In this document: positions 12,808-39,381 of the stretch, piece by piece | Layout of the letters: every line of letters begins with the position of its first letter | How positions within the stretch are numbered: the stretch's first letter is position 1 | Assembly (NCBI GenBank): GCA_043805415.1 | Contig: JAZDHZ010000034.1 | Location: 37,478 to 101,477 of the forward strand | Reading direction: 5' to 3' | DNA from: Candidatus Omnitrophota bacterium | GTDB taxonomy: Bacteria > Omnitrophota > Gorgyraeia > B26-G9 | DNA length: 64,000 bases | The notes under the pieces: model-generated | The model's input: the letters and a program-made list of their open reading frames with translations, nothing else | What the model was told of the DNA's origin: nothing | Databases searched by the model: none | Program-made: the position numbers and the translations under genes

Positions 12808-12843
12808 ATTAGCTAATAGCTGATGGCTCATAGCTAATGGTCA
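12808..12843 (+). repeat. degenerate TAGCTAATAG/TAGCTGATGG tandem repeat with stops in all three frames
   Basis: The sequence ATTAGCTAATAGCTGATGGCTCATAGCTAATGGTCA lies immediately after the HD gene stop. The same family occurs at 12951-12973, 13239-13284 (inverted), 32179-32211 and 39335-39381. Confidence 0.6.
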
Positions 12844-13238
12844 AAAGCAGAGAACAGAAAACGGAAGACATAAAACAAATTACTAATTACTAATTTCTAA
12901 ACTCTAAATAAACTCAAATGACTAAAGCCGAAAACACAGAAAGAGCACTTGGCTAATAGCCGATAGTCAATGGTTTGGCAAAAATTCTCTTTGAGCGGCG
13001 CTTTCGAACGTAATTTTGACATGGAGGGCAAAATAGTGAGAACGCGCGGCTGAGACTGCACGATGCAGACTCAGGCTTAGCGAAAAGACGTGTTTTTGCC
13101 GGTAACCAGTTACGTGAGCAGCGATTAGGAAAAGCAAGAAGACAGAAAACAGAAAAAAGCAGCGAATCGGGATTAGGACTTAGGAATTGCAATTGTCCTG
13201 TGACCTTGTGACTGGTGACCTTGTGACCGAAAGTTTTT

Positions 13239-13284
13239 AACTATTGACTATTAGCTATTGACTATTAACTATCGACTATCAATG
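13239..13284 (-). repeat. inverted copy of the TAGCTAATAG-type degenerate repeat
   Basis: AACTATTGACTATTAGCTATTGACTATTAACTATCGACTATCAATG is the reverse complement of the unit family seen at 12808. It lies just upstream of greA. Confidence 0.55.
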
Positions 13285-13296
13285 AAAGGTATTGTA

Positions 13297-13767
13297 ATGG
13301 GTGACATTTTTTTAACCAGAGAAGGCTATGACAAGATAAAAGAAGAATACGATCTTTTGACTCAGAAAAGAAGACATGAACTTTCCCGGGCAATCGGCAC
13401 AGCCCGGGAGTTAGGCGATTTAAAAGAAAATGCTGAATACCATGCGGCTAAAGAAGCCCAGGGTTTAAATGAAGCGCGGATCAGAGAACTGGGAGATACC
13501 CTTAGCCGGTCAAGAATCATTGATAATGAAAATATTGATAAAGATAAGGTCTTGCTTGGGGCAAAAGTAAAGATCCGCATTGTTAGTGATAATGAAATAG
13601 AAGAGTATACGCTTGTTTCAGAAGCTGAGGCTGATTTTAATAACAATAAAATATCAGCAGCCTCTCCTTTAGGCCAAGGGATGATTGGGCATAAGGCGGG
13701 AGAAATTTTGCAGATAAAAATTCCTAATGGTTTTATGGTAGTGGAAATCCTGGAAATAAGCAGATAA
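13297..13767 (+). CDS. greA: transcription elongation factor GreA
   Basis: The coiled-coil N-terminus (LTREGYDKIKEEYDLL..) and FKBP-like C-terminus are typical of GreA. The start was moved to the ATG with an AAAGG RBS. The tracked TTG start lies inside the repeat. Confidence 0.85.
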   Translation: MGDIFLTREGYDKIKEEYDLLTQKRRHELSRAIGTARELGDLKENAEYHAAKEAQGLNEARIRELGDTLSRSRIIDNENIDKDKVLLGAKVKIRIVSDNEIEEYTLVSEAEADFNNNKISAASPLGQGMIGHKAGEILQIKIPNGFMVVEILEISR

Positions 13768-13771
13768 ATAT

Positions 13772-14755
13772 ATGAACAAAAAAGTTCGCGCCTTGGGATT
13801 ATTATCCGGCGGATTAGACAGTATTCTTGCAGTCAAAGTATTAGAGGCTCAGGGGATTGAAGTTACAGGTTTATCATTTGTAACTCCTTTTTTCGGCCCG
13901 CGGCTTGCCCAAAAAGCAGCGGATGATTTAAAGATCAAATTTATTATAAAAGACATTACAGCCGAGCATTTTAAAATGCTTAAAAATCCCTGCCATGGCT
14001 ATGGCAAAACAATGAATCCCTGTATTGACTGCCATGCTTTAATGCTGAATATCGCCGGAAAAATAATGGAAGAAAACGGCTATGATTTTATTTTTACCGG
14101 AGAAGTGATTGATGAAAGACCAATGTCGCAAACCCGGAGATCCCTGGAAGTCGTGGCGCGTTCATCAGGATATCAGGACTATGTAATCCGGCCTTTAAGC
14201 GCGAAACTGCTTGAACCCACAAAACTGGAAATAAGCGGCATTGTTGACCGGGAAAAACTGCTTGATATCAGGGGCAGATCGCGCAAGCCGCAGATCGCAT
14301 TAGCCAAAGAATTCGGGGTTAAGGATTATCCTAATCCTGCTGGCGGATGTTTGCTTACGGATCAGGGTTTTTCCAATCGGCTAAAAGAACTGCTGGGGAA
14401 AAACAGTGAGCCGGAAATAAAAGATTTAAAATTATTAAGCGTGGGCAGGCATTTTCGCTTAGGAGATACGGCTAAATTAATCTTAGGCCGGGATCAGACT
14501 GAGAATCAGACAATAGAGACTTTTTTCTCTAATAGCGACTATTTGCTGACTGCCAAAGACATTCCCGGGCCTTTGTGTTTATTGACAGGTGAAAACCTGG
14601 ACGCTTATATTGATAAGGCAGCGCATATCTGTGCTGCTTATAGCGATACTGATGAACAGGAACAATGCTTTGTGCTTATTGACCATGAGAACCAAAAGCA
14701 GGAAGTTCAAGTTATTGTAAATAAGAAAGACAGAACAGAACTTAGAATTAATTAA
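13772..14755 (+). CDS. ThiI-like PP-loop ATPase (tRNA sulfurtransferase family, no THUMP domain)
   Basis: It has the N-terminal SGGLDS PP-loop. NPCIDC..TGEVIDERPMSQTRRSL resembles ThiI TGE..GQVASQT. Confidence 0.45.
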   Translation: MNKKVRALGLLSGGLDSILAVKVLEAQGIEVTGLSFVTPFFGPRLAQKAADDLKIKFIIKDITAEHFKMLKNPCHGYGKTMNPCIDCHALMLNIAGKIMEENGYDFIFTGEVIDERPMSQTRRSLEVVARSSGYQDYVIRPLSAKLLEPTKLEISGIVDREKLLDIRGRSRKPQIALAKEFGVKDYPNPAGGCLLTDQGFSNRLKELLGKNSEPEIKDLKLLSVGRHFRLGDTAKLILGRDQTENQTIETFFSNSDYLLTAKDIPGPLCLLTGENLDAYIDKAAHICAAYSDTDEQEQCFVLIDHENQKQEVQVIVNKKDRTELRIN

Positions 14756-14770
14756 TAGTTCTATTACATA

Positions 14771-14812
14771 GAAAAAGCGGAAAGACTGGTGCTGAGTCTT
14801 TCCGCTTTTTAA
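14771..14812. terminator. bidirectional intrinsic terminator
   Basis: An AAGCGGAAAGACT..AGTCTTTCCGCTT hairpin is flanked by an A-run and a T-run. It sits between convergent genes. Confidence 0.6.
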
Positions 14813-14825
14813 TTAAGCATTATTT

Positions 14826-15149
14826 TTACGGTTTGTATGTTGGCGCGTGCAGCTCAGGAAAAGCTTTTAAATCCTCGCTTTTTCCCCATTGAGAAACCTT
14901 ATCATTTAAAAAGAATATTTGATAAGTAGCTTTTGTTTTCGGGTCAGTTACCTCCCACATCTCAAGAACATTACCAGTCGCGTCGACTTTTGAGGCTTTA
15001 GCAACAAAGGTATTGCCAATAAGGCTTCTGACCTCGTCTTTTTGCATGCTGATGGAAAGCCGATTAATTTTTTGCCCTACACCCGCGCATCCGGCAAGAC
15101 TTAAAGCTAAAGTTATGATAACGAAATATGAAAATATTTTGTTACGCAT
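14826..15149 (-). CDS. small lipoprotein
   Basis: It has a signal peptide with the lipobox LAGC. Confidence 0.5.
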   Translation of the reverse strand: MRNKIFSYFVIITLALSLAGCAGVGQKINRLSISMQKDEVRSLIGNTFVAKASKVDATGNVLEMWEVTDPKTKATYQIFFLNDKVSQWGKSEDLKAFPELHAPTYKP

Positions 15150-15626
15150 TGATTGTACTCCTTTCTTAGTGTTTAACTTGGCATGAAAATTGTTTATAAT
15201 TTACAACTAGTACTAAGCAATAATCATGCCATAAATACAACTTATTCCATGTAAAACAGGTTACGCATCTGTATGTATTTAAAAGTGTTAAGAGGAAAAC
15301 CTTAATTTATTTAAAATCCTCAAAAAAAACAATTAGGAAATATGAGAAAAATCTTTCTTAATTTGAAAAGTTCTTCTTAAATATTGTATTTATATATTAC
15401 TAAATTTTTTAATTTTGGCAAGAAATATGTTTAAATTCAGCAAGCGAAAATACAAGTTTTTTTCACAAATAAAACAGATAAAAGCTTAATTTGACATATT
15501 CAGCGGCTAAGGTTAAACTGAAAAGATGATTGGGCAGGGAGTAATCATTTAGAAATAGCTTTTTCTGTGGGATATTACTGGCGTGATTGTAATTAATAAT
15601 AAATTTGCAAATAAGGATAATAAATA

Positions 15627-16664
15627 ATGGAAAAAATTTCAAAAAAATATGAGACTGGGCAGAAGGATACAGACAGCCTGATAACTAAACTTGCCCAGCA
15701 ATCCAGCTGCCCGGAAACAGAATATTTACTGCGGCAAATGCTGACCACAGTGGCTAAATTAGGCAAAGAATCGCATGACCTGGCTGATCTAAAGATGATA
15801 AATAATACACTCAAGGAATTACGCTATGCTTTTAAAATATTCGCGCCTTATCGCGAGATTAAGAAAGTTATAATATTCGGCTCAGCAAGATCCAAGCAAA
15901 GCTCAGCAGAATATAAGCTTGCCGAACAATTTGCCAGAAAAATTACTGATAAAGGTTACATGGTGGTAACCGGAGGCGGTCCGGGAGTAATGGAGGCTGG
16001 CAATAAAGGCGCTAAATCCGCGATGGAGTTTGCCTTGAACATCAAACTGCCTTTTGAACAAGCCGCTAATCCGTATATTGATGAAAAAGACAAAATAATC
16101 AATTTTAAGTATTTTTTTACCAGAAAGCTGATGTTTGTTAAAGAAACAGACGCCACAGTGCTTTTTCCCGGAGGGTTTGGAACTCATGATGAGGGTTTTG
16201 AAATGCTTACCTTGATTCAAACCGGCAAAGCCCAGCCCCGTCCGATAATTTTAATGGAACCAAAAGGATTCTCATACTGGAGTCAATGGAAACGGTTTAT
16301 AACCAAGCAATTGGTTGGAAAAAAATATATTAATAAAGCGGATTTAAGCCTTTTTCAGATTGCGAATACTTCAAATCAGGCAGTTGCCTATATCGAGGAT
16401 TTTTATAAAGTATACCATTCAATAAGATATGTTCAGGGCTATACAGTATTGCGCTTAAACAAAGACATCTCCGATAAAACATTAAAAACCCTAAATAAAA
16501 AATTTAAAGATATATTAAAAGCAGGAACAATCAAGCGGAGTTTAGTAACAGATATAGAACATGAGCCAAAAGAATATCTGGATTTACCGCGTCTGATCAT
16601 GAATTTTAATCGCCATGATTATTCAAGGTTAATTGAATTAATCCACATGATTAATAAAGACTGA
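15627..16664 (+). CDS. LOG-family (TIGR00730) Rossmann-fold nucleotide-binding protein, PpnN/YgdH-like
   Basis: It has the motifs GSARS...VVTGGGPGVMEA and PGGFGTHDE. Confidence 0.65.
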   Translation: MEKISKKYETGQKDTDSLITKLAQQSSCPETEYLLRQMLTTVAKLGKESHDLADLKMINNTLKELRYAFKIFAPYREIKKVIIFGSARSKQSSAEYKLAEQFARKITDKGYMVVTGGGPGVMEAGNKGAKSAMEFALNIKLPFEQAANPYIDEKDKIINFKYFFTRKLMFVKETDATVLFPGGFGTHDEGFEMLTLIQTGKAQPRPIILMEPKGFSYWSQWKRFITKQLVGKKYINKADLSLFQIANTSNQAVAYIEDFYKVYHSIRYVQGYTVLRLNKDISDKTLKTLNKKFKDILKAGTIKRSLVTDIEHEPKEYLDLPRLIMNFNRHDYSRLIELIHMINKD

Positions 16665-16726
16665 TTTTAATGCCTGGATATGTTGTATTTACAGTATTTT
16701 TATAAATAATAATCAGGGAATGAATT

Positions 16727-17767
16727 ATGAAAAAACAAAACATTAAGAAAATACTTATTTTCGGCCATAGCAATATCGGCGATATTTGTTATGACATGGT
16801 TGTGGTTAATCCTTTAAGAAATGCTTTTCCCCAGGCAAAGATAAGTTTTATTACTTCGCCAAACGGAGTTGATATCGCGAATACAGTCAAGGGAATAGAT
16901 CAGATAATTGTTTTTGACAAGCATGGCAAAGATAAGGGCTTGTGGGGGTATTTGCGGTTTATGGCAATGATCAGAAAAGAAAAATTTGATTTTAGCCTTA
17001 TCCTGCGTGATGTGCAAATGCATTATTTTTTTAATATCCCAAACATATTAAAGTTTAAAAAGAATTCCTACCCAAACCAAGGGCTGCATTTAGCGCAAAA
17101 ATATCTTAAGTTTCTGGAAAGTCAGGAGATTAAAGCGCGAAAACCTGAGTTTGATTTTAAATTTTCTGATAATGATTTGCAATATGCTGATGATATTTTT
17201 AAGCAAAATAGCGCTGGGGATAATGGTTTACGTATCGGGATTATGCCTTTAGCTGCCTGGCCGCTTAAGTGCTGGCCAATTGATAATTGGAATTTACTAA
17301 TTGAAAAATTAGTTAAGCAAATGCAGGCTAAAGTTTTTTTATTCGGCAGAACAGGCTCAAGCGATTGGGATAAAGGGATTAAACAAAAGCTTTCCCCGAA
17401 AGCAATATCGCTTATTGATCAGACCACAATGTCTCAGTCAATGGCTTTGCTGAAATCGCTGGATATATTTATCGGCGCGGATACAAGCCTACTGCATCTT
17501 GCCAGCTGTATGGGTATTGAGACAATCGGATTATACGGTGCCACTGATCCGGATTTTATTTATCCCTTGTTCCACAAACAGAATATTGTTCTCTCAAAAG
17601 CAAAGCTAAAATGCCTGCCCTGTTATCCCGGGCCTGAGGGAGGAAGCTGCAAGGCAAATGAGCCGGCGGAATGTATGCAAGCCATATCCTGTGATCAGGT
17701 ATGGCAAAAGATAACTGAGGTTATAAATAGACAGCAAAATAAGCGGCATTCTAAGGAAAAGGCTTGA
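16727..17767 (+). CDS. glycosyltransferase family 9 (LPS heptosyltransferase-like)
   Basis: The N-terminus ILIFGHSNIGD and a Gly-rich C-terminal nucleotide-sugar-binding region match the GT9 architecture. Confidence 0.65.
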   Translation: MKKQNIKKILIFGHSNIGDICYDMVVVNPLRNAFPQAKISFITSPNGVDIANTVKGIDQIIVFDKHGKDKGLWGYLRFMAMIRKEKFDFSLILRDVQMHYFFNIPNILKFKKNSYPNQGLHLAQKYLKFLESQEIKARKPEFDFKFSDNDLQYADDIFKQNSAGDNGLRIGIMPLAAWPLKCWPIDNWNLLIEKLVKQMQAKVFLFGRTGSSDWDKGIKQKLSPKAISLIDQTTMSQSMALLKSLDIFIGADTSLLHLASCMGIETIGLYGATDPDFIYPLFHKQNIVLSKAKLKCLPCYPGPEGGSCKANEPAECMQAISCDQVWQKITEVINRQQNKRHSKEKA

Positions 17768-18591
17768 ATCACATGATGGTTATTGCTAAAACAACTGTAA
17801 CGATAATCGCGGGTTTAATTTTTCTGTTTTTCTATGCTCGTTATTTAGAAAACAAGAGTCTTTATTATCCGGTAGGTGAGATTTTTGATACTCCGGAGGA
17901 TATTAATCTTGAATATGAAAATGTATTTTTTTATTCAGAGGACAAAGTAAAATTAAATGCCTGGCTGATTAAAGCGAAAAATCCCAGAGCAACAATAATC
18001 TTCTGCCATGGCAATGGCGGTAATATAAGTCATCGCTTAGATAAAATAGATTTTTTTTATAACCTGGAGGTAAATCTATTTATTTTTGACTATCGCGGTT
18101 ATGGACAGAGTCAGGGAAAACCCAGTGAGAACGGGCTTTATCAAGATGTTCAAGCGGCTTATAAATTTATTAAAGATAAACAGCTGGGAGTTCCGATCAT
18201 CTTGTACGGGGAGTCATTAGGCGGGGCGATTGCCATAGATCTTGCGGCTAAAAGTGATTTTGCGGTTGATGGTTTAATCCTTGAAGGGGCTTTTAATAAT
18301 GTTAAGGATATGGCGAAACTTATTTACCCGCTCTTGCCAGCTGGTTTGCTTAAAACCAAGTTTGATTCGATTGCTAAGATTGCTAAGATAAAAGTTCCCA
18401 AGCTGCATTTTCACGGAAAAGCTGATGATATTGTGCCAATCGCTTTAGGCCGGAAATTGTTTGCCGCGGGAAATAGTCCGAAAAAATTTATTACTTTAGA
18501 AGGCAGTCATAATGACTGTTTTTTTATTTCCCAAGACTTAGCGCGCGGCAGTGTAAATGAATTTATCGATTCGCTGGCTGATCAACCCTAA
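17764..18591 (+). CDS. alpha/beta-fold hydrolase
   Basis: It has an HGNGGN oxyanion motif and a GESLGG nucleophile elbow. The C-terminus has Asp/His. Its start overlaps the upstream stop by 4 nt. Confidence 0.6.
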   Translation: MNHMMVIAKTTVTIIAGLIFLFFYARYLENKSLYYPVGEIFDTPEDINLEYENVFFYSEDKVKLNAWLIKAKNPRATIIFCHGNGGNISHRLDKIDFFYNLEVNLFIFDYRGYGQSQGKPSENGLYQDVQAAYKFIKDKQLGVPIILYGESLGGAIAIDLAAKSDFAVDGLILEGAFNNVKDMAKLIYPLLPAGLLKTKFDSIAKIAKIKVPKLHFHGKADDIVPIALGRKLFAAGNSPKKFITLEGSHNDCFFISQDLARGSVNEFIDSLADQP

Positions 18592-19882: not shown

Positions 19883-19902
19883 TCAGTAATTAGTAAAGTT
19901 TA

Positions 19903-20394
19903 TTAACTCATTCTTAACTGTCTTAAAGCTTCTTTTGCCGCGCCTTTAATATTGGAAATCTCTTCTGGATTAGAAATTAATTCCTTTAATGCCTCAATAG
20001 CTGCTTTATCTCCGATTTTTGCCAGCGGGTAGATAACTGACCAGCGGACATGTTCGGATTCATCTTTTAAAGCCGCGCATAAATAGGGCACAGCGCTTTT
20101 ATCTTTAATCGCGCCTAATGCCGCGGCAGCCGCGCCCCTAACGCTTTCATCAGGGTCTTTTAATGCTTTAATTAAGGCTGGCACAGTGCATTTATCAGAC
20201 AGCCCTTTTTGAAAAGATTGGGCTACTGCCTGACGTACAGAAGAAGATTCATCATTTAAGAGAATCTTAATCAATTCCGGGATAATGGATTTATCCCCTA
20301 AGTTGGATAAAGACTGTATTGCTTGTTTGCGGGTAATCGGGTGGATGTCTTCTAAATCAATTAGTAATTCCGGGATATTCTTGTTATCAGCCAT
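19903..20394 (-). CDS. HEAT/PBS-lyase repeat protein
   Basis: It has tandem ~30-aa repeats of the form A.AL..I.D.S...VR..A. Confidence 0.65.
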   Translation of the reverse strand: MADNKNIPELLIDLEDIHPITRKQAIQSLSNLGDKSIIPELIKILLNDESSSVRQAVAQSFQKGLSDKCTVPALIKALKDPDESVRGAAAAALGAIKDKSAVPYLCAALKDESEHVRWSVIYPLAKIGDKAAIEALKELISNPEEISNIKGAAKEALRQLRMS

Positions 20395-20399
20395 TATTT

Positions 20400-20969: not shown

Positions 20970-21077
20970 AAAAAAATGTAATTGTCAAAGAAACCGGCCG
21001 CGGAGCAAGCTATCATTATTATGACATCAAGTTCAAATTCACGAAAAAAGCGGAAAAAAGATAGCGCTTTGAAAAGC

Positions 21078-22043: not shown

Positions 22044-22383
22044 CTCTAATTCCTCCGATATATTATTATTAGCACAAAAAAAAATAATTTCAAGCAATAA
22101 AAAAGTCTATTCAGCTATTTTTATTTTTGGAATATCTTCAATCCGGTAGAAAAATATATTAGCAAATTTTTCAAAAGTGTGGTATATTTAAATCAAGAGG
22201 ATAGACGAGCAGTAAAGTACGTTTAATGTTTGGATTTTGAATAAGTTCGGAAATTTAAGTGTAACAACCTCGTCTGTCCTCGTTTTTTTATGCCCAAATC
22301 ATATTAAGATTTTACGTATTGCGCCGTGAGTCGTGCGTATCGCGTAAAAGCCCCAATTTATCTATAGCTTTTGTTTCTATCCG

Positions 22384-22411
22384 CAATACTCAATACTCAA
22401 TACTCAATACT
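22384..22411 (+). repeat. (CAATACT)x4 perfect tandem heptamer repeat
   Basis: It lies ~110 bp upstream of the uvrA start. Confidence 0.9.
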
Positions 22412-22521
22412 CTGTACAGTCTGTTTTTCCCCATTGCTACACTGCTTTGTTTGTGCTAGTATATTATTCACGTTTAATAGAGATTAACCATCCTTTTATC
22501 CGCTATATTTGAGAGTGAATT

Positions 22522-30209: not shown

Positions 30210-30221
30210 GAGGACTGTTTA

Positions 30222-30634
30222 ATGCGGTTTAGAAAGCATTTAGAGCTTGAAAAAGGCCAGAAAGAAATCAATATCACTCCTTTAGTGGATATGGTATTTC
30301 TGCTGCTTGTTTTTTTATGCTTACTTCAAGTTTTATTGTCATGCCGGGAATAAAAATAAATTTACCCAAAGCCGTTACCTCAGAAGTTATAAAAGATAAA
30401 AATATCATTATTACCGTGAATAGTGAAAACATTATTTATCTTAATGAAAAACCGATCACTTTAGCTGAGCTTACAAATCATCTTAGTGAAATGGTAAAGT
30501 CAAACAAAGAAATACCCTTGCTAATCAAAGCGGATAAAAATACGCAGCTGGGATCAGTTGTAATGGTATGGGATATTTGCCGGAAAGTGGGGATTTCCCA
30601 GATTAATATCGCGACTTTACAGGAAGTAAAATAA
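30222..30634 (+). CDS. exbD: ExbD/TolR biopolymer transport protein, interrupted by a -1 frameshift in a T7 run (30310-30316)
   Basis: The N-terminus MRFRKHLELEKGQKEINITPLVDMVFLLLVF is in one frame. The remainder (MLTSSFIVMPGIKINLPKA.., ORF 30317..30634) is in another. One extra T restores LLLVFFMLTSSF. Confidence 0.7.
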
Positions 30635-31527: not shown

Positions 31528-31617
31528 AGTTATAATGCTTGATCTGAGCAGAATCGGATTTCTACTATAGCCGATGTGTATACACTAAATATCAGCTACG
31601 CAGCTAGCTAAGGAGGA

Positions 31618-31836
31618 GTGTTTATGATGATAATGGAAATTGGTATTGTTGCTGGAGATATCTGGCACTATCTGGATGAAAACGGAAATGTCGCTCTTGA
31701 AGATTTAATCAAGGGAATAGATAAACCCCGGAATTTAGTTTTAATGGGCCTGGGATGGTTAGCCCGAGAAGGCCATGTTAGTGTTGAAAATTCTGACGGT
31801 TCCAGAGTCAGTCTTAGAAAAAAAGACTTACTCTAA
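31618..31836 (+). CDS. small winged-helix (DUF2582-like) protein
   Basis: The motif LMGLGWLAREGHV matches the wHTH DUF2582 family. Confidence 0.4.
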   Translation: MFMMIMEIGIVAGDIWHYLDENGNVALEDLIKGIDKPRNLVLMGLGWLAREGHVSVENSDGSRVSLRKKDLL

Positions 31837-31841
31837 AGCTT

Positions 31842-32168
31842 ATGCTTAAAAATAATGAATATATTGTTGTTTTTGTTACTGCCGGCTCAACCAAAGAAGC
31901 TGATTTTTTAAGAAAAAAACTTATGGAAAGTAAACTGGCCGCTTGTGTTGCTAAAACAAGGGTTAACTCCATGTTTTGCTGGAAAGGTAAAGTCGAAACT
32001 GAAAACGAAGTATTGCTGATTATAAAAACAAAATATGCTTTATATGAAAAGCTGGAAGCTTTGATTAAAGAAAATCATAGTTATGAGGTGCCGGAGATTA
32101 TTGCTTTACCGATTATCACCGGCAGTAAACCGTATCTTGACTGGATAGATGAAAATACGAAAAAGTAA
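31842..32168 (+). CDS. cutA: divalent-cation tolerance protein CutA
   Basis: Length is ~108 aa. The motifs VVFVT and EVPEIIALPI are typical of CutA1. Confidence 0.8.
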   Translation: MLKNNEYIVVFVTAGSTKEADFLRKKLMESKLAACVAKTRVNSMFCWKGKVETENEVLLIIKTKYALYEKLEALIKENHSYEVPEIIALPIITGSKPYLDWIDENTKK

Positions 32169-32178
32169 AAAGCACTTT

Positions 32179-32211
32179 TAGCTCATAGCTGATAGCTCAT
32201 GGCTCATAGCA
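32179..32211 (+). repeat. degenerate TAGCTCATAG/TAGCTGATAG repeat (three-frame stop family)
   Basis: TTAGCTCATAGCTGATAGCTCATGGCTCATAGC starts 10 nt after the cutA stop. Confidence 0.6.
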
Positions 32212-32260
32212 AAAGCAAAAAAACAAAATAAAGTATAAAGTTGAAAACGCGATAAAGTAA

Positions 32261-32295
32261 AAAAGGCCGGGATTAATTATCCCGGCCTTTTTTGT
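32261..32295 (+). terminator. intrinsic terminator
   Basis: The hairpin GGCCGGGAT-taat-TATCCCGGCC is followed by T7. The GC-rich palindrome GGGCCACG-N6-CGTGGCCC follows at 32298-32319. Confidence 0.7.
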
Positions 32296-32380
32296 AGGGC
32301 CACGGCGTGACGTGGCCCTAATGGTGTCTTTGTGCCTTGTGTCTTGTGTCTTTAACTTAATCTGTGATATAATAAATCAA

Positions 32381-32875
32381 ATGAAAAAAGGTTTCACTCT
32401 CTTAGAGCTACTTATCGGGATTACAATATTCGCGATTATCTCCGGCGCGGTTTATACCAGTCTTTATCTGGGGATAAAAGTTTGGAAGAATGAAGAAAGA
32501 AATAATTCAAGCGTTCAGGAAATCATGCTGTGCTTTGGCTTGCTGGAAAAAAGCTTGCACAGTACTTTTCTTAATCCGGATAATGAGAATATAAAGTTTA
32601 AAGGCAGTTTGGAAAGACTTGAATTTTTCGCGGTAAATCAATCAGGGCAGCTGGAAGCCGTCAGCTTTTATCTTGAGCCTGCCGGTACCAGCGGTAAAGA
32701 TTTATTTAGATTATTGGTTTTAAGACAAAAACCCGGGCAGGAAAAAGAGCAGACAGAATCGATTCCGGAAGTTGTGAATAATCGAATAAGCGCTTTTAAA
32801 TTAAGCTATTTTGATCAAGGGAAAAATCAATGGTTTGAAGACTGGCCGGAAGAATTAGCTGCCCGGCGCAAGTAA
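32381..32875 (+). CDS. prepilin-type N-terminal cleavage/methylation domain protein (minor pseudopilin)
   Basis: MKKGFTLLELLIGITIFAII is the type IV pilin/pseudopilin leader plus hydrophobic helix. The tracked ORF extends further upstream in frame. Confidence 0.6.
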   Translation: MKKGFTLLELLIGITIFAIISGAVYTSLYLGIKVWKNEERNNSSVQEIMLCFGLLEKSLHSTFLNPDNENIKFKGSLERLEFFAVNQSGQLEAVSFYLEPAGTSGKDLFRLLVLRQKPGQEKEQTESIPEVVNNRISAFKLSYFDQGKNQWFEDWPEELAARRK

Positions 32876-33016
32876 AGGCGGAAATAGATTTTAAGACCGC
32901 GGACAATGGCGGGACTGGGCTGCGTTTAGAAAAATATATCAGTATCCCGATCGCGAATGAAATACAGTTTTCTTTTGACGAAGACGCGGGCTGATATTGT
33001 ACAATATATAAATTAA

Positions 33017-33847
33017 ATGGATAAAATCGCGAAAAGAAAAGATGGGTTGATTCTGATTATTGTTTTATGGATAATGTTTTTTCTTTCTGTTGCTGTGCTT
33101 ACCTTGGGGGCGAACAATAGAATGAATATAAGGCTGCGCTCACTGAATAATGAAAGTCTGCGCATGTTTTATCTGGCAAAAGAAGGGGTAAACCGGGCGA
33201 TTGATAGTCTGATCAGCGATGATCAGGAGTTTGATTCACTTAACGAAAACTGGAGCAAAAAAATATCCTTAGAAAAAGATGAAGGAATAGTAACGGTTCA
33301 GATAATTGATGAAAATAGATTTATAAACATTAACAGTGTTTCCGGAGAAATTTTAAATAATATTAAACTGCTTTTTCCTGAGATCACAGCTGAGCAGATA
33401 GACGCGATTATGAAAAACCGGCCGTTTAATTTAAAAACCGAGGTTAAAGATTTATTAGAACAAGGGGAAATAGCCCCTTTGGTTGAGCAAACAGGCCTGA
33501 TTGATATGCTGACTACTTTTACTGACGGGACTTTGAATATCAATACAGCATCTGAAAAAGTCCTGGCGCTGATTCCGAATATGACGGAAGCCGCAGCCCA
33601 GACAATTATTAGCCATCGGCAGGCAAACCCGTTTATCAGCAATGATTCGCTTTCAGCTGAACTATCGCTTTTGGGTTTACCTCTCGCGCAGATTAGTTCG
33701 CTGATTAAATTTGTTAAAGTGCGTTCAGCTGTATTCAGGATTTTAGTCAAAGCTCAATCAAAAGATAGGTATATTGCTAAAAAGCTTGAAGTAGTCGTGA
33801 GCCGGCAAGAGCAAAAAATACGCGTTTTATCGTCCATGGAGAATTGA
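33017..33847 (+). CDS. GspK-like type II secretion / pilus minor pseudopilin
   Basis: It has an N-terminal TM and a GspK-like domain. NINTASEKVLALIPNMTEAAAQTII is an HhH-like motif. Confidence 0.5.
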   Translation: MDKIAKRKDGLILIIVLWIMFFLSVAVLTLGANNRMNIRLRSLNNESLRMFYLAKEGVNRAIDSLISDDQEFDSLNENWSKKISLEKDEGIVTVQIIDENRFININSVSGEILNNIKLLFPEITAEQIDAIMKNRPFNLKTEVKDLLEQGEIAPLVEQTGLIDMLTTFTDGTLNINTASEKVLALIPNMTEAAAQTIISHRQANPFISNDSLSAELSLLGLPLAQISSLIKFVKVRSAVFRILVKAQSKDRYIAKKLEVVVSRQEQKIRVLSSMEN

Positions 33848-35190
33848 CCTTGATAAAAACAGTAATTTATTTTACGAATAAAGAAGCGCGGATCGTTCAA
33901 TTTAATATCAATAAACAATTGATCAAGATTGTTAAAGATAAAAGCATCGCTTTGGAAAACAAGGAGATCAATCCTTTAGCGATTAAGAATCTTGTTCTTA
34001 AACAGGGGATTGTTAAGACTAATCTCGCGGGCTGTCTTTTCCGCCATCAGGTAAGTGTAAGATTTTTCTCTTTTCCTTCGCATGAAGACGCGGAAATCGG
34101 CCGCATGGCCCAATATGAAGCCGCGGAATTGCTGCCGCTGAAGCCGGAAGAAACAATAATCAGGTATCTTATTTTAAAAAAAAGAGATAATGGCTACTCC
34201 GATACATTGGTTGTTGTCACGCATAAAGAAGAAGTGACAAAACTTCTGGATAAAATCAAAGCTTCGGCAATGGAAATAGAATCTTTGAACCTAAGCAGTT
34301 TAGCCTTGCTCAGCGGCCTTAAACATATTCTGGGAAAAAATATTTCAGATAGCAATGATAATGTTTTACTGGTTTATGTTGAAGATGGCGCGGTGGAAAT
34401 TATTATCGCGCGAAATGGGATTATTGAATTCAGCCGCGGGTTTTTGACCGAAGATATTAATACCTTTGCCCAGGTTTTAATCAGTGAAATCCGCCACAGC
34501 ATGGAGCTGTTTTTTAGTAATGCCGGAGAGAATAAACTAAAAAAAATCATCCTCGGTTCTCCCAATGGCGAGTTAAAAGCCATTGCTGAGGTTTTAAAAC
34601 AGAGATTTAGCGTGCCGATTCAAGAGGAAAAAATGGACATTGCTTATGGACTAGCTTCTTTAGGAAATAGCGGAGTTAATTTATTGAGCAATGAATTTAT
34701 TTTAAAGCGAAAACTGCGATCCTTTAATAAGAAAATTGTAATCAGCTGTCTGCTTCTGTTTGTGAATATTCTATTGTGCGGCGGAATATTCATGATTCAG
34801 CTAAATAGAAAACAGGCTTATCTGGAAAAGCTGAATACAGAAATAGCCGGCCGTAAACCGCAGGCCCAGGCAGTGCAGAATAAATTAAGAAAGCTTGAAA
34901 TAGTTAAAGCCCAATTAAGCTCCCAACTGCTTATTTTAGACGCGATTACTGATATCGTCGATATTTCTCCGGTGTCAACTAACCTTAATATGCTTTCGAT
35001 AAATGAGCAGGGAATTATGGTAATCAGAGGCCAGGCAAAAACTTTGCAGGAAGTGCTGGATTTTGTTGGCGCGATAGAAAAATCAATGTATTTCACTAAT
35101 AGCCATTTAAATTATTCTAATCGCAGAAAACTGAAGGATATGGAACTTATTGATTTTGAAATTCAGTCTAAGGTAGAGCAGAAAAATTAA
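33844..35190 (+). CDS. PilM-like actin-fold domain fused to a TM and PilN-like coiled coil (GspL-like assembly protein)
   Basis: The N-terminal ~280 aa resemble PilM. It has an internal TM (IVISCLLLFVNILLCGGIFMI) and a coiled-coil C-terminus. It has a TTG start. Confidence 0.45.
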   Translation: MTLIKTVIYFTNKEARIVQFNINKQLIKIVKDKSIALENKEINPLAIKNLVLKQGIVKTNLAGCLFRHQVSVRFFSFPSHEDAEIGRMAQYEAAELLPLKPEETIIRYLILKKRDNGYSDTLVVVTHKEEVTKLLDKIKASAMEIESLNLSSLALLSGLKHILGKNISDSNDNVLLVYVEDGAVEIIIARNGIIEFSRGFLTEDINTFAQVLISEIRHSMELFFSNAGENKLKKIILGSPNGELKAIAEVLKQRFSVPIQEEKMDIAYGLASLGNSGVNLLSNEFILKRKLRSFNKKIVISCLLLFVNILLCGGIFMIQLNRKQAYLEKLNTEIAGRKPQAQAVQNKLRKLEIVKAQLSSQLLILDAITDIVDISPVSTNLNMLSINEQGIMVIRGQAKTLQEVLDFVGAIEKSMYFTNSHLNYSNRRKLKDMELIDFEIQSKVEQKN

Positions 35191-35288
35191 ACATAGATAA
35201 ATAAGGCAGAAGGTGGATAAGGGAAACGGAAAAGAGTTCTCTGGCTTTATAACTTCTGCCTTTTGCGTTTAAATCTTAAAAGGCAAAT

Positions 35289-35840
35289 ATGCGGATTATC
35301 AGCGGAGAATTTAAAAACCGGAACTTAAAAATGCCTAATTCCCGGGAGGTCAGGCCTACCAGTCAAAAAGTCAGAAAAGCGATTTTTGCTGTTTTGGCCG
35401 GAGAAATTGAAGGAAAAAAGGTATTAGATCTTTTTAGCGGCAGCGGAGCCCTGGGGTTTGAGGCTTTAAGTGCCGGAGCGGCTGGGATTACTTTTGTGGA
35501 AAAAAGCAAATTATCAATCAAAACAATATATGACAACGCGATGCTTTTGGCTGTTAAGCCCAAGTGCGCGGTAATTAGCGGCGACGCGCTGGAAAGTCTG
35601 GATAGCTTGCATGCCAAAGGTTTACGCTATGATCTTGTATTTGCTGATCCTCCTTATCTTGGCGGTTTGGCAAAAAAATGCTTGCTCAAAATCAGCAGCT
35701 GTGATATATTACTCGCGCCTGCAATAGTAGTTATTGAACACTACAAAAAGGATGAGCTGCCGACGATCAGCGGAAATTTAAAGCTGTGGCAGCTTAAAAA
35801 TTATGGGGACACTCTTGTCTCCTTTTATACCTATGCTTAA
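35289..35840 (+). CDS. rsmD: 16S rRNA (guanine966-N2)-methyltransferase RsmD
   Basis: It has the motifs VLDLFSGSGALGFEALS and FADPPY. Confidence 0.8.
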   Translation: MRIISGEFKNRNLKMPNSREVRPTSQKVRKAIFAVLAGEIEGKKVLDLFSGSGALGFEALSAGAAGITFVEKSKLSIKTIYDNAMLLAVKPKCAVISGDALESLDSLHAKGLRYDLVFADPPYLGGLAKKCLLKISSCDILLAPAIVVIEHYKKDELPTISGNLKLWQLKNYGDTLVSFYTYA

Positions 35841-35916
35841 ATTCCATATTTTGGTGTAAGAGTATAACTATTTTATTTGCAGAGTGTTAAGTTTCTAGTT
35901 TAGAATCGGATCAGGA

Positions 35917-36408
35917 GTGTTTATTTTGAAACAAAGAGCAGTGTATCCCGGAACATTTGATCCGGTTACTTATGGGCATATTGATATAATCAAAAGAGCG
36001 GCAAAGCTCTATGATCAGGTCATTGTTGCCGTAGCGGCAAATTCTTCAAAGGAGACATTGTTTAGTGTCAGCGAGCGGGTATCAATGCTTAAGCAGGCAA
36101 CAAAGGGCTTGTCTAGAGTAAGAGTGGATGCTTTTGATCAGCTGATGGTTGATTATGTGCAAAGTAAAAATATTAATGTGGTAATCCGGGGATTAAGAAT
36201 GATCTCGGATTTTGAATATGAATTTCAAATGGCCTTAACTAACCGCAAGCTGAATAAAGATATTGAAATTGTGTTTATGATGCCCAATGAATCATATTCC
36301 TTTGTCTCAAGTAAATTGATCAAAGAAGTCGCCAGATTAGGCGCGAATTTAGCGGAATTTGTTCCAAGTTTTGTGGAAAAGAAATTAAAAAAAATATTAG
36401 TAAAGTAA
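35917..36408 (+). CDS. coaD: phosphopantetheine adenylyltransferase
   Basis: It has the motif AVYPGTFDPVTYGHIDII. Length is ~160 aa. Confidence 0.85.
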   Translation: MFILKQRAVYPGTFDPVTYGHIDIIKRAAKLYDQVIVAVAANSSKETLFSVSERVSMLKQATKGLSRVRVDAFDQLMVDYVQSKNINVVIRGLRMISDFEYEFQMALTNRKLNKDIEIVFMMPNESYSFVSSKLIKEVARLGANLAEFVPSFVEKKLKKILVK

Positions 36409-36491
36409 GTTACTGAAGTAAATGGTTTAAGTAAATTATTGGTTCAATTTTATTTTATTAGGATAAAGATTCTAATAATCGCGAGGAGAAA

Positions 36492-37496
36492 ATGGAGATT
36501 TTAAATAAAATCAGGCAAAGGGCCAGGGACAATCAGCGAACAATTGTTCTGCCTGAAGGTGATGATAAGCGGATTTTAGAAGCAGCGAAAATTATTGTTA
36601 AAGAAAATCTAGCCAAGATTATAATCCTGGCGCTGGATGATAATTTTAAACAAAAAGCAGAAGCAGCGGGACTGGATTTAACAAAGGTCCAGGTAGTTAA
36701 TCCGGCAAAAAGTCCTGATCTGACGGAATTTTACGAGAAATTTTTTGAGCTGAGAAAAGCCAAGGGAATTACTGAGGAGCAAGCCAGAGAGCAGATGCTC
36801 AAACCAGTATATTTCGGAGCAATGATGGTGCGTTTCGGCAAAGCTGACGGCATGGTTGCCGGCGCGATGAATACAACCGCGGATGTGGCTAAAGCCGCGA
36901 TTTACTGCATTGGTTTTGGCGAAAAAAGCCGGACCATTTCCAGCTGTTTCTTAATCTCAGTTCCGGATTGCGTATATGGTTCAAAAGGAACTTTTGTTTT
37001 TGCTGACTGCGGCATTGTGCCTGATCCTTCGCCGTCTCAGATCGCGAATATTGCCGCGTCTGCTTCAGAATTGTTCAGTTTATTAGTTGAAGAAGAGCCA
37101 AAGGTAGCTTTGCTCAGTTTCTCGACTAAAGGCAGTGCCCAGCATGAAATGGTGGATAAAATAGTCAGAGCCAAAGCGATTATTGATGAAAAATATCCGG
37201 AATTAATTGCCGACGGAGAATTGCAGCTGGACGCGGCGATTGTCCCGGAAGTAGCCAAGATTAAAGCTCCGGACAGTAAAGTCGCCGGAGCGGCAAATGT
37301 TCTGATTTTCCCGGATCTTAATGCCGGAAATATATCATACAAAATGGTGCAGCGCTTAGCCAAAGCTGAAGTTATCGGTCCGATGATGAATGGCGTGTCC
37401 AAGCCCTGCAGTGATCTTTCCCGCGGCTGCACAATCGATGAAATTGTTAATGCTGTGTGTACAACATCAATCCGGGTTACCCAAGAGAATAAATAA
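36492..37496 (+). CDS. pta: phosphate acetyltransferase (short PTA_PTB type)
   Basis: It has a PTA_PTB domain (TIVLPEGDD..SKPCSDLSRG). Length is 334 aa. It lies directly upstream of ackA. Confidence 0.85.
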   Translation: MEILNKIRQRARDNQRTIVLPEGDDKRILEAAKIIVKENLAKIIILALDDNFKQKAEAAGLDLTKVQVVNPAKSPDLTEFYEKFFELRKAKGITEEQAREQMLKPVYFGAMMVRFGKADGMVAGAMNTTADVAKAAIYCIGFGEKSRTISSCFLISVPDCVYGSKGTFVFADCGIVPDPSPSQIANIAASASELFSLLVEEEPKVALLSFSTKGSAQHEMVDKIVRAKAIIDEKYPELIADGELQLDAAIVPEVAKIKAPDSKVAGAANVLIFPDLNAGNISYKMVQRLAKAEVIGPMMNGVSKPCSDLSRGCTIDEIVNAVCTTSIRVTQENK

Positions 37497-38629
37497 TGAA
37501 TATACTAGTTATAAATTGCGGAAGTTCATCAATAAAATATCAGCTGTTTTGTATGGAAAAAAACCAATCCCTGGTAAGCGGCATCGCGGAAAAGATCGGC
37601 AGTGAAGGATCAGGCATTACCCATAAAAAAGGCGATAAATGCTATAAAGCCAAGCTGGAATTAAATGATTATTTTACGGCAATTGAAAAGATTTCCCAGC
37701 TGCTTACTGATCCGGTCTGGGGAGCGGTAAACAGTAAAGAAGATATTCAGGCAATCGGGCACAGGGTTGTGCACGGCGGCGAAGAATTTAAAACATCGGT
37801 AATTATTGATAAGCATGTTTTAGAAAGAATAAAATTTTACAGCAGCCTCGCGCCTTTGCATAATCCTCCGGCTTATAATGGGATTCAAGCAACTCAAAAG
37901 ATTTTTCCTGAAGTTAAGCAGGTCGCGGTTTTTGATACAGCATTTCATCAGACAATGCCGGAAGAGGCATTTATGTATGGCCTGCCGTATAAGCTGTATA
38001 CAAAATATTGCATTAGGCGTTACGGGTTTCATGGCACCAGCCATCGTTATGTATCATCAGCTGCTGCCAAAATTCTAAAGCGCCCTTTAAATAAATTAAA
38101 GCTGATTACCTGCCATTTGGGCAATGGCTGCAGCATTACCGCGGTTAAAAACAGCTGTTCAGTGGATACAAGCATGGGTTTTACTCCGCTGGAAGGATTA
38201 ATGATGGGCACCCGCTGCGGGGATATTGATCCGGCTTTAATCAGCTATATTATGGAAAAAGAAAAACTCAGCGCTGAGCAGGTTGGGCAGATGATGAACA
38301 GCAAAAGCGGTTTACTGGGTATTTCCGGAATAAGTAATGATATGCGCGATCTGCTTGAGCACGCGGAAAATGGGCATAAGCAGGCAAAGCTGGCAATAGA
38401 TATGTTTATTTATAAAGTGAAAAAATATATCGGCGCATATATCGCGGCCATGAACGGCGCGGACGCGATTGTGCTTACCGGTGGGATTGGTGAGAATATG
38501 CCGCTGGTCAAGCAAAGGCTGGTTAAAGAATTAAGAAATCTGATGGGCAAGAAAATGAAAATGCTGATTATTCATACCGAAGAAGAGCATTTAATCGCCC
38601 TGGATACTTTTGAACTTATAAAAAGGTAA
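37496..38629 (+). CDS. ackA: acetate kinase
   Basis: It has the N-terminus ILVINCGSSSIKYQLF and the motifs HRVVHGG and GFHGTSH. Confidence 0.9.
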   Translation: MNILVINCGSSSIKYQLFCMEKNQSLVSGIAEKIGSEGSGITHKKGDKCYKAKLELNDYFTAIEKISQLLTDPVWGAVNSKEDIQAIGHRVVHGGEEFKTSVIIDKHVLERIKFYSSLAPLHNPPAYNGIQATQKIFPEVKQVAVFDTAFHQTMPEEAFMYGLPYKLYTKYCIRRYGFHGTSHRYVSSAAAKILKRPLNKLKLITCHLGNGCSITAVKNSCSVDTSMGFTPLEGLMMGTRCGDIDPALISYIMEKEKLSAEQVGQMMNSKSGLLGISGISNDMRDLLEHAENGHKQAKLAIDMFIYKVKKYIGAYIAAMNGADAIVLTGGIGENMPLVKQRLVKELRNLMGKKMKMLIIHTEEEHLIALDTFELIKR

Positions 38630-38638
38630 GATTCAGCA

Positions 38639-39088
38639 ATGAAAGTTATTGTAAATGAAATTCCGCCTCAGGGTTTGGAGCTGGAAGAGTCAGAATCAGC
38701 GAAAGTGCTGGATATAGAGCGCAGTGATATTGAATTTATAAAACCAGTTCAGATTAAAGCAAAAGTTAAGCGCGAATATGACAGCATCAGAATACATCTG
38801 GATATTGAAGGTGAAATACGCTTTGCTTGTGCCCGATGCCTGGAAGATGAAACTCGGATTTTAGCAGAGCATATTGATATAATCAAAGACGCAAAAGAAG
38901 AAAAAATAATTGATTTAACTCAAATTGCCAGAGAAGAAATAATCTTTGCTTATCCGGAAAAATTGCTTTGCAAGTCAGACTGCAAAGGTTTGTGCCAGAG
39001 ATGCGGCAGAAATAGGAATGTGCATACATGCCGATGCGAAATAAGCGAAAGTTCGCTCGGAATTCATATAGATAGATTAGATAATTGA
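38639..39088 (+). CDS. YceD/DUF177 family protein
   Basis: It has a C-terminal CxxC..CxxC. Its position upstream of rpmF-plsX is conserved. Confidence 0.7.
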   Translation: MKVIVNEIPPQGLELEESESAKVLDIERSDIEFIKPVQIKAKVKREYDSIRIHLDIEGEIRFACARCLEDETRILAEHIDIIKDAKEEKIIDLTQIAREEIIFAYPEKLLCKSDCKGLCQRCGRNRNVHTCRCEISESSLGIHIDRLDN

Positions 39089-39133
39089 TATAAAAACAAG
39101 AACATTACGATATGTTTTAAGGAGGAATAAACA

Positions 39134-39331
39134 ATGGCGCATCCAAAACGGAAACATTCTAAAACCAGGCGTGATACAAAACGGGCTTCAAACTCAAAAT
39201 TAGATACACCAGGCAGTTCATTATGTCCGGCCTGCAATCAGCCTAAACCAGCGCACCATATCTGTCCGCAGTGCGGAGAATATAAAGGGATTAAGTACAT
39301 AGTAAAAAAAGAAAAAGAACCGAAAAAGTAA
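39134..39331 (+). CDS. rpmF: 50S ribosomal protein L32
   Basis: It has the N-terminus MAHPKRKHSKTRRD and CPACNQ..CPQCG. Confidence 0.9.
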   Translation: MAHPKRKHSKTRRDTKRASNSKLDTPGSSLCPACNQPKPAHHICPQCGEYKGIKYIVKKEKEPKK

Positions 39332-39334
39332 GAA

Positions 39335-39381
39335 CTAATGGCTAATAGCTAATGGTCAATAGCTGATAGTTAAGAGCTAAG
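39335..39381 (+). repeat. degenerate TAATGGCTAATAGCTAATGGTCAATAGCTGATAG repeat (three-frame stop family)
   Basis: It starts 4 nt after the rpmF stop. Confidence 0.6.

Follow-up and report, generated by a model that had tools for sequence, protein, structure and literature searches.

Degenerate heptanucleotide arrays next to stop and start codons in a Candidatus Omnitrophota genome

Why should some bacterial genes be followed, within a few nucleotides of their stop codon, by short repeats that close all three reading frames? This question is raised by a stretch of 64,000 nt (hereafter, the window) from a Candidatus Omnitrophota metagenome-assembled genome (MAG; JAZDHZ010000034.1, positions 37,478-101,477, forward strand), where such tracts follow the genes coding for an HD_3 protein, CutA, and L32 (rpmF). 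A first-pass annotation had placed them at 12808, 32179, and 39335 of the window, with an additional copy at 12951 and an inverted one at 13239, just before greA, and had regarded them as a read-through barrier or as a lineage-specific element resembling the repetitive extragenic palindromic (REP) sequences. All five tracts are present within 1 nt of these positions, the last two extending over 12950-12977 and 13237-13285, respectively.

According to our reading, to which we assign a probability of about 0.62, the tracts are degenerate tandem heptanucleotide arrays (unit TRGYYNA) that were generated by slippage in one Omnitrophota clade, are tolerated in non-coding DNA, and are decaying. They are long simple-sequence repeats (LSSRs), kin in type to the short tandemly repeated repetitive (STRR) sequences of cyanobacteria and to the TAACTGA repeats of Beggiatoaceae; the finding thus adds a genuine repeat family, confined to one lineage, to a class already known, and extends that class to Omnitrophota. 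A literature search retrieved no published mention of such repeats in Omnitrophota. As for intergenic heptanucleotide repeats in general, we know of no function or generating mechanism established for them since 1990 (STRR).

The genes flanking the tracts, identified in the window by means of Pfam and of the list of open reading frames (ORFs), are the following:

12211-12807: HD_3 protein, stop codon TAG
13297-13767: GreA, ATG at 13297
31842-32168: CutA, stop codon TAA
39134-39331: L32 (rpmF), stop codon TAA
39513-40508: PlsX, ATG at 39513

A period of seven nucleotides in register

Each of the five tracts repeats in tandem every 7 nt, with TRGYYNA as the unit. The alignment in register of 50 units revealed that T1, G3, and A7 occur in 90%, 96%, and 98% of them, respectively, which gives the consensus T R G Y Y N A. 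Probing the window with three consecutive units (TRGYYNA x3, up to two mismatches) returned 19 matches, exclusively at the five sites, while 100 dinucleotide shuffles averaged 0.65 and never exceeded 3. Moreover, both Tandem Repeats Finder, which reported periods of 7 and 14, and our own scans indicated 7 as the sole period in excess in the window; the coding DNA exhibited period 3 only. The arrays and the elements lying among them are listed below:

12808-12861, forward strand: forward array after the HD stop codon (TAGCTAA, TAGCTGA, TGGCTCA, TAGCTAA, TGGTCAA, drifting to CAGAGAA and CAGAAAA)
12862-13150, forward strand: segment of about 289 nt, absent from the relative L171, with ACAGAAAAC on either side
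13151-13236, forward strand: other degenerate repeats of 7-8 nt (AGAAAAC, GGATTAG/GGACTTA, TGTGACC(T))
13237-13285, reverse strand: reverse-complement TRGYYNA array (the forward strand reads TAACTAT, TGACTAT, TAGCTAT, etc.)
22318-22422, forward strand: other heptamer arrays in the divergent spacer between the penicillin-binding protein (PBP) gene and uvrA, degenerate CGTATTG-type units and then four perfect CAATACT units (22384-22412)
32179-32213, forward strand: forward array in the 3' untranslated region of cutA (TAGCTCA, TAGCTGA, TAGCTCA, TGGCTCA, TAGCAAA)
32262-32300, forward strand: intrinsic terminator of cutA, made of a GC hairpin and, after it, a T run (-25.4 kcal/mol, z -4.75), kept in relatives
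32324-32358, forward strand: array of TGTGYCT heptamers immediately 5' of TGTGATATAAT, the extended -10 box belonging to the pilin-like gene (ATG at 32382)
39332-39387, forward strand: forward array after the rpmF stop codon (CTAATGG, CTAATAG, CTAATGG, TCAATAG, CTGATAG, TTAAGAG, CTAAGAAG)
39388-39512, forward strand: rest of the rpmF-plsX spacer, with period 7 up to about 10 nt from the ATG of plsX

The first TRGYYNA unit after the HD gene begins at 12810, 2 nt past the stop codon; the cutA array starts 10 nt past the stop, between it and the intrinsic terminator; CTAATGG begins at 39335, 3 nt past the rpmF stop. The periodicity extends well beyond these units. In the rpmF-plsX gap the self-identity is 0.55 at lag 7, 0.51 at lag 14, 0.44 at lag 21, and 0.40 at lag 28, with a background of about 0.27; at lag 7 the HD-greA and cutA-pilin spacers reach 0.44 and 0.41, respectively. 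Furthermore, 24 units in one register make up the region 12805-12975 as a single array, drifting from CTAATAG to CAGAAAA, then to CTAATTA, and again to CTAATAG. The tract at 12951, which had been regarded as an additional copy, belongs to the same array as that at 12808, because positions 12812 and 12952 are 140 nt apart, that is, 20 x 7. The register continues from 12862 to about 12977, with AATTACT-type units (12878) followed by TGGCTAA, TAGCCGA, and TAGTCAA at 12950-12977. Additional unit types occur elsewhere in the window: AGAAAAC (13137), TGTGACC(T) (13199), the perfect CAATACT x4 (22384), GTGTCTT (32324), ACGCAAT-like units (ACGCAAT, ACGCGAT, ACTCACG, and ACGCTAT at 39432-39462), and TATAACT (TATAACT, TATAACT, and CATAACT at 39464-39496). 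The tracts originally noticed are, therefore, the best-preserved stretches of longer, degenerate, in-register heptamer arrays, which occupy the greater part of the spacers. Telomere-like repeats, transposon target-site footprints (7-bp duplications), and IS10-like target motifs were also considered; no supporting data emerged for any of them.

The PlsX and GreA of the window match proteins of a Candidatus Omnitrophota MAG with 100% identity, while CutA, looked up by exact sequence, gave no match. Relatives were found by protein homology with PlsX (79-90% identical) and GreA (72-88% identical), and their syntenic loci (labelled L081, L083, L085, L086, L167-L169, and L171-L173) were compared with the window; overall, 192 kb of Omnitrophota DNA were surveyed, 88% of which is coding. 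As a control set we used 160 unrelated bacterial loci (1.31 Mb), gathered via GreA homologues of 38-50% identity among the matches listed. Period-7 tracts number eight in the 64 kb of the window, four in the 21 kb of L081, and two in the 13 kb of L083, compared to six in the 1.31 Mb of the controls, which are dominated by periods of 6, 9, and 12; the window is about 27 times denser in such tracts than the control loci. Exact TRGYYNA x3 is confined to the Omnitrophota loci with respect to the unrelated ones. Among the sequences compared, the element is restricted to this clade.

Position of the arrays and stop codons in all frames

The position of the arrays relative to genes follows some rules. 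About 20 tracts occur in the 192 kb of Omnitrophota DNA, and nearly all are non-coding, the one real coding exception being a 3-unit tract within the last 57 nt of an ORF. In the loci compared, four of the five independent forward arrays begin no more than 12 nt after a stop codon (p ~4e-4, a rough product estimate assuming uniform placement within spacers), so that the enrichment at gene ends predicted by the first-pass annotation is borne out; the sole forward array located elsewhere is the one embedded in the 289-nt segment of the window.

This placement is what one would expect if the tracts were selected read-through or frameshift barriers, halting ribosomes in any frame after certain genes. 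Each post-stop tract, taken as a whole, does close all three frames, within 16, 24, and 21 nt, distances that fall in the lowest sixth of all genes; in addition, an array supplies, and contains, the stop codon that ends rpmF of L081, and the same holds for 12 ORFs of viral contigs. However, a stop-containing unit repeated every 7 nt closes all three frames simply because 7 = 1 mod 3, and all-frame closure is thus arithmetic for any stop-bearing 7-nt unit. Neither is it correct that every unit carries TAG, TAA, and TGA, since TGGCTCA has none of them. The comparison with the other genes of the window gives the barrier no advantage: the next in-frame stop lies at 9, 24, and 21 nt after the three genes, while the median over 60 genes is 15 nt; 11 genes shut all frames within 25 nt, eight of which lack a tract; and a tract follows only three genes out of 60. 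Moreover, the orthologues in L085, L086, L168, and L169 are devoid of arrays, and where arrays do occur their length exceeds many times over what a barrier would require. The TRGYYNA unit is also found reversed upstream of starts and promoters, and the sibling arrays made of CAATACT, GTGTCTT, and AGAAAAC are free of stops on the sense strand; the stretch 22318-22422 contains no forward-strand stop at all. The proposal of a barrier is, on the whole, very improbable, and the all-frame stops are a constraint and a side effect of period 7 rather than a selected device. For annotation purposes, this implies that all-frame stops after a gene signal period-7 repeats and are no proof of a termination device.

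The exclusion from genes can be accounted for in the same way. Stop-bearing arrays would be confined to non-coding DNA, as an ORF running into one would end at once; being untranslatable, they would be tolerated only there.

Spacer length, conservation, and folding

In some genomes the gene pairs flanking the arrays are separated by 15-30 nt, in others by heptamer spacers of 150-490 nt; this represents a clear comparative series. The HD-greA gap is 489 nt long in the window, 192 in L171, 164 in L172, and 15 in L173. Similarly, the rpmF-plsX gap measures 181 nt in the window, 241 in L081, 147 in L167, and 38 in L083, and in the more distant relatives 30 (L085 and L169) or 21 nt (L168 and L086). 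The long spacers are the derived state, because it is the more distant relatives that have 15-30 nt at these sites. The series shows unit-step insertions and deletions (indels), in-register drift, sites at which one unit family has given way to another, and foreign insertions into arrays, and it offers a direct view of new intergenic DNA arising in a compact genome.

Regarding the unit-step changes, the array at 12808-12861 is orthologous in L171 (96% identity over aligned columns) and L172 (89%), the one at 13237-13285 is kept in both with a one-unit indel, and the repeats at 13151-13236 are nearly identical in L171 except for gaps of 7 and 15 nt. In total, the gaps opened by aligning orthologous arrays are 7, 7, and 15 nt long, i.e., about one or two units; irregularities of 1 nt, such as the 15-nt gap and the 8-nt units, are to be read with caution because of the split genes present in this assembly (see below). 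After rpmF, the orthologous array of L081 comprises 13 units and includes the rpmF stop codon (TAA) in its first unit; compared to the window, it has one unit fewer and, in addition, an internal block of about six units. The rpmF-plsX spacer of L167 consists of at least 18 drifting units in register, of the GACACAA, GCATGAA, and AATCATA types.

The split genes are the following. The dnaK gene is split in the window (6368-6679 and 6598-8253), and DnaK is intact in L171 and L172 (627-628 aa); a pilin/T2SSJ-like gene is broken (32382-32875 and 32876-33016) and is intact in L081 and L083 (202-203 aa); exbD (30210-30634) is also among the genes truncated or split here and whole in relatives. These cases point to indel errors of this assembly or to pseudogenes.

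Unit-family replacement is seen between cutA and the pilin-like gene. Downstream of cutA, TAGCTCA units are common to the window and L083 (one mismatch in 66 nt), L081 has TTACTAA/TGACTAA units, and L085, L168, and L169 have no array. At the position preceding the pilin-like gene, TGTGNCN arrays occur in L081, L083, and L168, as in the window, while L167 harbors reverse TRGYYNA units. The extended -10 box next to this array (32363-32384 in the window) is conserved in L081, L083, L085, L167, L168, and L169 and ends about 9 nt before the ATG, which suggests that the mRNA of the pilin-like gene might be leaderless or nearly so. As for the PBP-uvrA spacer, its heptamer stretch is not conserved in L171, where the flanking small-RNA candidate (described below) and the uvrA promoter region are conserved.

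The foreign insertions comprise the segment of about 289 nt in the HD-greA spacer, which, besides the heptamer register described above, contains a non-repeat core with a hairpin. The core includes an 11-bp inverted repeat (CTGAGACTGCA...TGCAGACTCAG) and gave no match in Rfam; the portion 12990-13090 has a counterpart (76% over 101 nt) at a different locus of the distant relative L173 (11613-11710, opposite strand). It may represent an unknown mobile or RNA element. Likewise, in L172 a 29-nt GC hairpin (CCTCCTTTGCCAAGGCTTCGGAGGACAGG, 9854-9882) lies inside the post-stop heptamer array, about 13 nt of which (GCTAATAGCTGAT) are duplicated on either side.

These data can be accommodated by the following scenario. 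A 7-bp unit would have been duplicated stepwise in one Candidatus Omnitrophota clade, most simply by slipped-strand mispairing at replication, and gaps of 15-30 nt between cistrons would thereby have grown to spacers of 150-490 nt; point mutations would then have blurred the units, and this would explain both their degenerate look and their drift along a single register. Most arrays would, accordingly to this scenario, be tolerated rather than required.

Some observations weigh against it. The differences between arrays (gaps of 7, 7, and 15 nt and differing unit numbers) are changes between species, a setting in which slippage can only be presumed. Furthermore, the contact of arrays with stops and starts is left unexplained by a simple expansion from within. 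Forward arrays start 0-12 nt past the stop at four independent gene ends, namely HD (three orthologues), cutA (two), rpmF (two), and greA of L173. Every reverse array precedes a start codon: the distance from its end to the ATG is 11-18 nt for greA (three orthologues) and for plsX of L081, and 38 nt for the pilin-like gene of L167. In the window, the reverse array ends 11 nt ahead of the greA ATG, just 5' of the AAAGG ribosome-binding region. The variation within the unit is also uneven, falling mainly at positions 2, 4, 5, and 6 with T1, G3, and A7 fixed in 90-98% of the 50 units, and looks like a core motif plus a spacer. Lastly, array spacers are well conserved: over aligned columns, the window is 96% identical to L171, 89% to L172, and, in the cutA-pilin spacer, 94% to L083, values that the alignment of repeats inflates somewhat. 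The conserved end, where the array spacers sit, is not where a purely neutral microsatellite would be expected.

Coding DNA is 74-86% identical overall, and four-fold sites in the flanking genes only 41-57%; we had at first taken the distance between 96% and 41-57% as a strong proof of selection, a view that was tempered by the other, array-free spacers of the same genome pairs, which are 82-91% identical over 67-95% of their length. Non-coding DNA is thus generally constrained here, with the arrays at its conserved end.

One might then wonder whether the arrays are selected cis-acting sites, where an oligomeric RNA- or DNA-binding protein reads an A-U-R-G core every 7 nt and thereby tunes translation initiation, mRNA stability, or promoter use. 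The core-plus-spacer pattern and the contrast with four-fold sites would fit, as would the proximity of arrays to stops, to ribosome-binding sites, and, in several relatives, to the conserved extended -10 box. Moreover, pre-start tracts are less structured than their shuffles (z +0.9 to +1.3; +1.26 for the greA array at 13237-13285), as expected for a landing site of a protein or of the ribosome. HutP, which binds UAG motifs with 4-nt spacers, and TRAP, with a similar logic, provide a working analogy for an A-T-R-G core every 7 nt, although the arrays occur in both orientations. The lack of a clear orientation bias on viral contigs, in particular, makes a strand-specific RNA reader unlikely. 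In addition, a single site can hold different unit families in different relatives, many orthologous sites are array-free, and array-free spacers are conserved too; no candidate protein was identified, and no search for one was made. As far as greA is concerned, a scan with the sigma-70 consensus revealed no forward-strand promoter in the HD-greA spacer, and a promoter role for these arrays is therefore unsupported. A similar role was proposed for the TAACTGA repeats (MacGregor 2015, PMC4679880). Overall, we regard the existence of such a reader as unlikely.

The array spacers are probably transcribed. The post-stop tracts fold at -7.9 to -12.3 kcal/mol, with z values of -1.77, +0.15, and -1.57. 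These values bear on the proposal of a mobile palindromic element, REP-like or other, with a transposase of its own to spread it. A REP is an imperfect palindrome of 20-40 nt that forms a stable stem-loop and has a conserved GTAG head; in Enterobacteria and Pseudomonas such palindromes occur as dispersed copies mobilised by REP-associated tyrosine transposases (RAYTs). Like REPs and the bacterial interspersed mosaic elements (BIMEs), the arrays are short repeats placed after stops inside operons; besides, TAGCTA is self-complementary, and hairpins of about -12 kcal/mol are possible in the post-stop tracts. Unlike them, they are tandem direct repeats with weak hairpin potential (z only -1.8 to +0.15), without a conserved palindromic unit or a GTAG/CTAC head, and the number and sequence of the units vary from copy to copy, no copy being fixed. 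The continuity of the register together with the variation in unit number indicates tandem duplication and not transposition. Separate GC-rich GTAGGG palindromes in the same spacers look far more REP-like than the tracts themselves. Thus, of the label "lineage-specific REP-like element", the first half stands and the second is to be abandoned as hardly credible.

The palindromes just mentioned start with GTAGGG(G)C, end with its complement, and are of variable length. They were found at 32294-32318 and 47366-47390 in the window, at 2655-2748 in L081, at 2877-2955 in L083, and at 10545-10572 in L173; in the cutA-pilin spacer, the palindrome directly follows the terminator.

A different kind of structure would arise if the forward and reverse arrays of one spacer paired with each other, either as a long-range imperfect RNA duplex looping out the spacer (for example, a double-strand-specific processing site or an insulator of cistrons) or as terminal inverted repeats similar to those of miniature inverted-repeat transposable elements (MITEs). 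Minimum-energy folds of the HD-greA spacer do join the two arrays, with z values of -3.06 in the window, -2.12 in L172, and +0.21 in L171, and the pairing is also predicted in the rpmF-plsX spacer of L081 (z -4.76). Yet the fold of the rpmF-plsX spacer in the window itself (z -0.19) shows no such pairing. L171 carries changes that do not compensate each other, and the covariation term of RNAalifold is +1.78 with three sequences only, so that the long-range helix is predicted without covariation support. Moreover, arrays occur singly, and after cutA a terminator separates the array from the next one. As to the MITE-like form, the lack of the whole spacer in more distant relatives is consistent with an insertion, as are the foreign pieces with flanking duplications found in arrays (289 nt in the window, the 29-nt hairpin in L172); however, the spacers share neither a common internal sequence nor fixed termini. 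Taken together, these data make either form of paired arrays improbable.

Placement rules, core-plus-spacer conservation, and paired-array folds leave room for co-option, and the first of these, with the above-average conservation, gives hints that some arrays were indeed co-opted. Considering jointly protein-binding and RNA-duplex elements, co-option is a possibility that we advance tentatively, the odds being against it. A broader proposal would have selection maintain the arrays, in Omnitrophota as in numerous phages, as modules from which spacers are built and by which genes are regulated, with forward ones at stop codons and reverse ones at ribosome-binding sites acting through paired RNA duplexes that insulate or process neighbouring cistrons, or through A-U-R-G protein sites. 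It is rather doubtful; if true, it would give a function to the whole class of STRR/TAACTGA repeats.

Related repeats and neighbouring elements

Arrays of this type are not a peculiarity of the loci analysed here, as heptamer arrays of many kinds with the T..T.A pattern are common in the viral contigs of IMG/VR. Searching for four exact tandem TRGCTNA units retrieved 71 stretches from contigs with a G+C content of 28-72%; several contigs hold 3-6 sites each, and the sample that yielded L081 and L083 is also the source of one contig. In the viral contigs the arrays often extend all the way from the stop codon to the ribosome-binding site. Among the 62 arrays lying outside ORFs, 19 forward and 13 reverse ones abut a stop, and 11 forward and 8 reverse ones are within 30 nt of a start; hence, no strong orientation rule holds in viruses. 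The number of IMG/VR stretches with four tandem units varies with the unit as follows:

TRACTNA (TAACTGA-like): at least 120 stretches
TRGATNA: 107 stretches
TRAGTNA: 93 stretches
TRGCTNA: 71 stretches
TRGGTNA: 41 stretches
TRCGTNA (CpG control): 12 stretches
ANTCGRT (CpG control): 11 stretches

The idea of TRGCTNA as a uniquely favoured unit (71 stretches against 11-12 of the CpG controls) was dropped when non-CpG controls gave 41-107.

Among the known repeats, the closest to the Omnitrophota arrays are the TAACTGA direct repeats described in marine Beggiatoaceae, some Cyanobacteria, and Bacteroidetes (MacGregor 2015, PMC4679880). In BOGUAY they are mostly exact, in 2-6 forward copies ending about 1 nt before the start, usually with no ribosome-binding site nearby (PMC4679880); their forward-strand stops control where the repeats can sit, and S1, Csp, or CsrA have been proposed as their readers (MacGregor 2015, PMC4679880). 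The two families have in common tandem intergenic 7-nt units near gene boundaries, all-frame forward stops that limit the overlap with ORFs, sets interrupted by related heptamers, and abundance on viral contigs (TRACTNA and TRGCTNA, respectively). TAACTGA is one base off TAGCTGA and TAGCTAA, and a TAACTTA unit exists in L171. They differ in the host and in the arrangement: in Omnitrophota, forward arrays follow stops, whereas pre-start arrays are reversed and the AAAGG region is retained. Moreover, the units are much more degenerate, and the spacers remain in register for up to about 170 nt. Finally, TAACTGA repeats consist of an exact unit plus rarely repeated related heptamers, while here TAGCTAA, TAGCTGA, TGGCTCA, and TGGTCAA coexist with several repeated families. 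The Omnitrophota arrays are, therefore, not strict members of that family.

The assignment to LSSRs is a broader one. As summarised in PMC4679880, Mrazek (2007) defined LSSRs as having units of 5-11 nt, with heptanucleotides as the commonest class in most genomes examined, proposed slippage as their origin, and described the exclusion from coding DNA of units that are not a multiple of 3. The arrays share with them the 7-nt tandem units, tracts longer than expected by chance, and coding exclusion, and they fall within the statistical definition. This is a statistical category and not a sequence family, and it predicts neither the placement at stops and starts, nor the orientation, nor the above-average conservation seen here.

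The STRR heptanucleotides of heterocystous cyanobacteria were reportedly described by Mazel et al. in 1990, with CCCCAGT, TTGGTCA, and CAACAGT as units. They are intergenic tandem heptamers too, often downstream of ORFs and with several unit families per genome, and TGGTCAA of the window is one base from a rotation of STRR2 (TTGGTCA). Unlike them, the present arrays reside in Omnitrophota, and their dominant unit, TRGYYNA, is not an STRR unit.

Other heptamer arrays were noticed during the comparison. TTTAGGG-type arrays (the unit of plant telomeres) in L169 (20326-20505 and 5666-5777) and L081 (18953-18991) adjoin N runs in a scaffold, an indication that, in this Omnitrophota clade, short-read assemblies break at long heptamer arrays. 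In the control locus L024, from a Planctomycetales MAG, arrays of CCAGTGA/CCAATGA and of the inverse TCATTGG occur at 1-54 and 353-380; period-7 intergenic arrays may be more widespread in the Planctomycetes-Verrucomicrobia-Chlamydiae (PVC) group.

Concerning the remaining intergenic DNA, Rfam retrieved no match from the whole window at gathering thresholds and, at permissive thresholds, only a single sub-threshold chance match in the HD-greA spacer; no tRNA was found in the window. A small-RNA candidate of about 95 nt lies between the PBP gene and uvrA (22186-22296, forward strand), with counterparts in L171 (18716-18826) and L173 (14872-14998). An extended -10 box (TGTGGTATATT) precedes it, a long stem (GAGGATAGACGAG...CTCGTCTGTCCTC) closes it, and it bears a U run; both relatives conserve it, with three compensatory pairs in the closing stem, and it has no match in Rfam.

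In addition, a 19-nt motif (GGGGTCAAGTCTGTAATCT) is repeated on the forward strand at 49231, 49926, 51221, 52587, and 57630 (up to two mismatches, none expected by chance), each copy sitting in a short gap between forward-strand genes; its distribution would fit a shared promoter or operator of the gene cluster, and it may be one. Two of the copies open a direct repeat of about 127 nt (52582-52710 and 57625-57750), identical by eye, which follows two different genes. Lastly, a further motif, GAGCTCAAACGTTAT, was recognised by eye in three intergenic regions, at 57832, 58162, and 60776.

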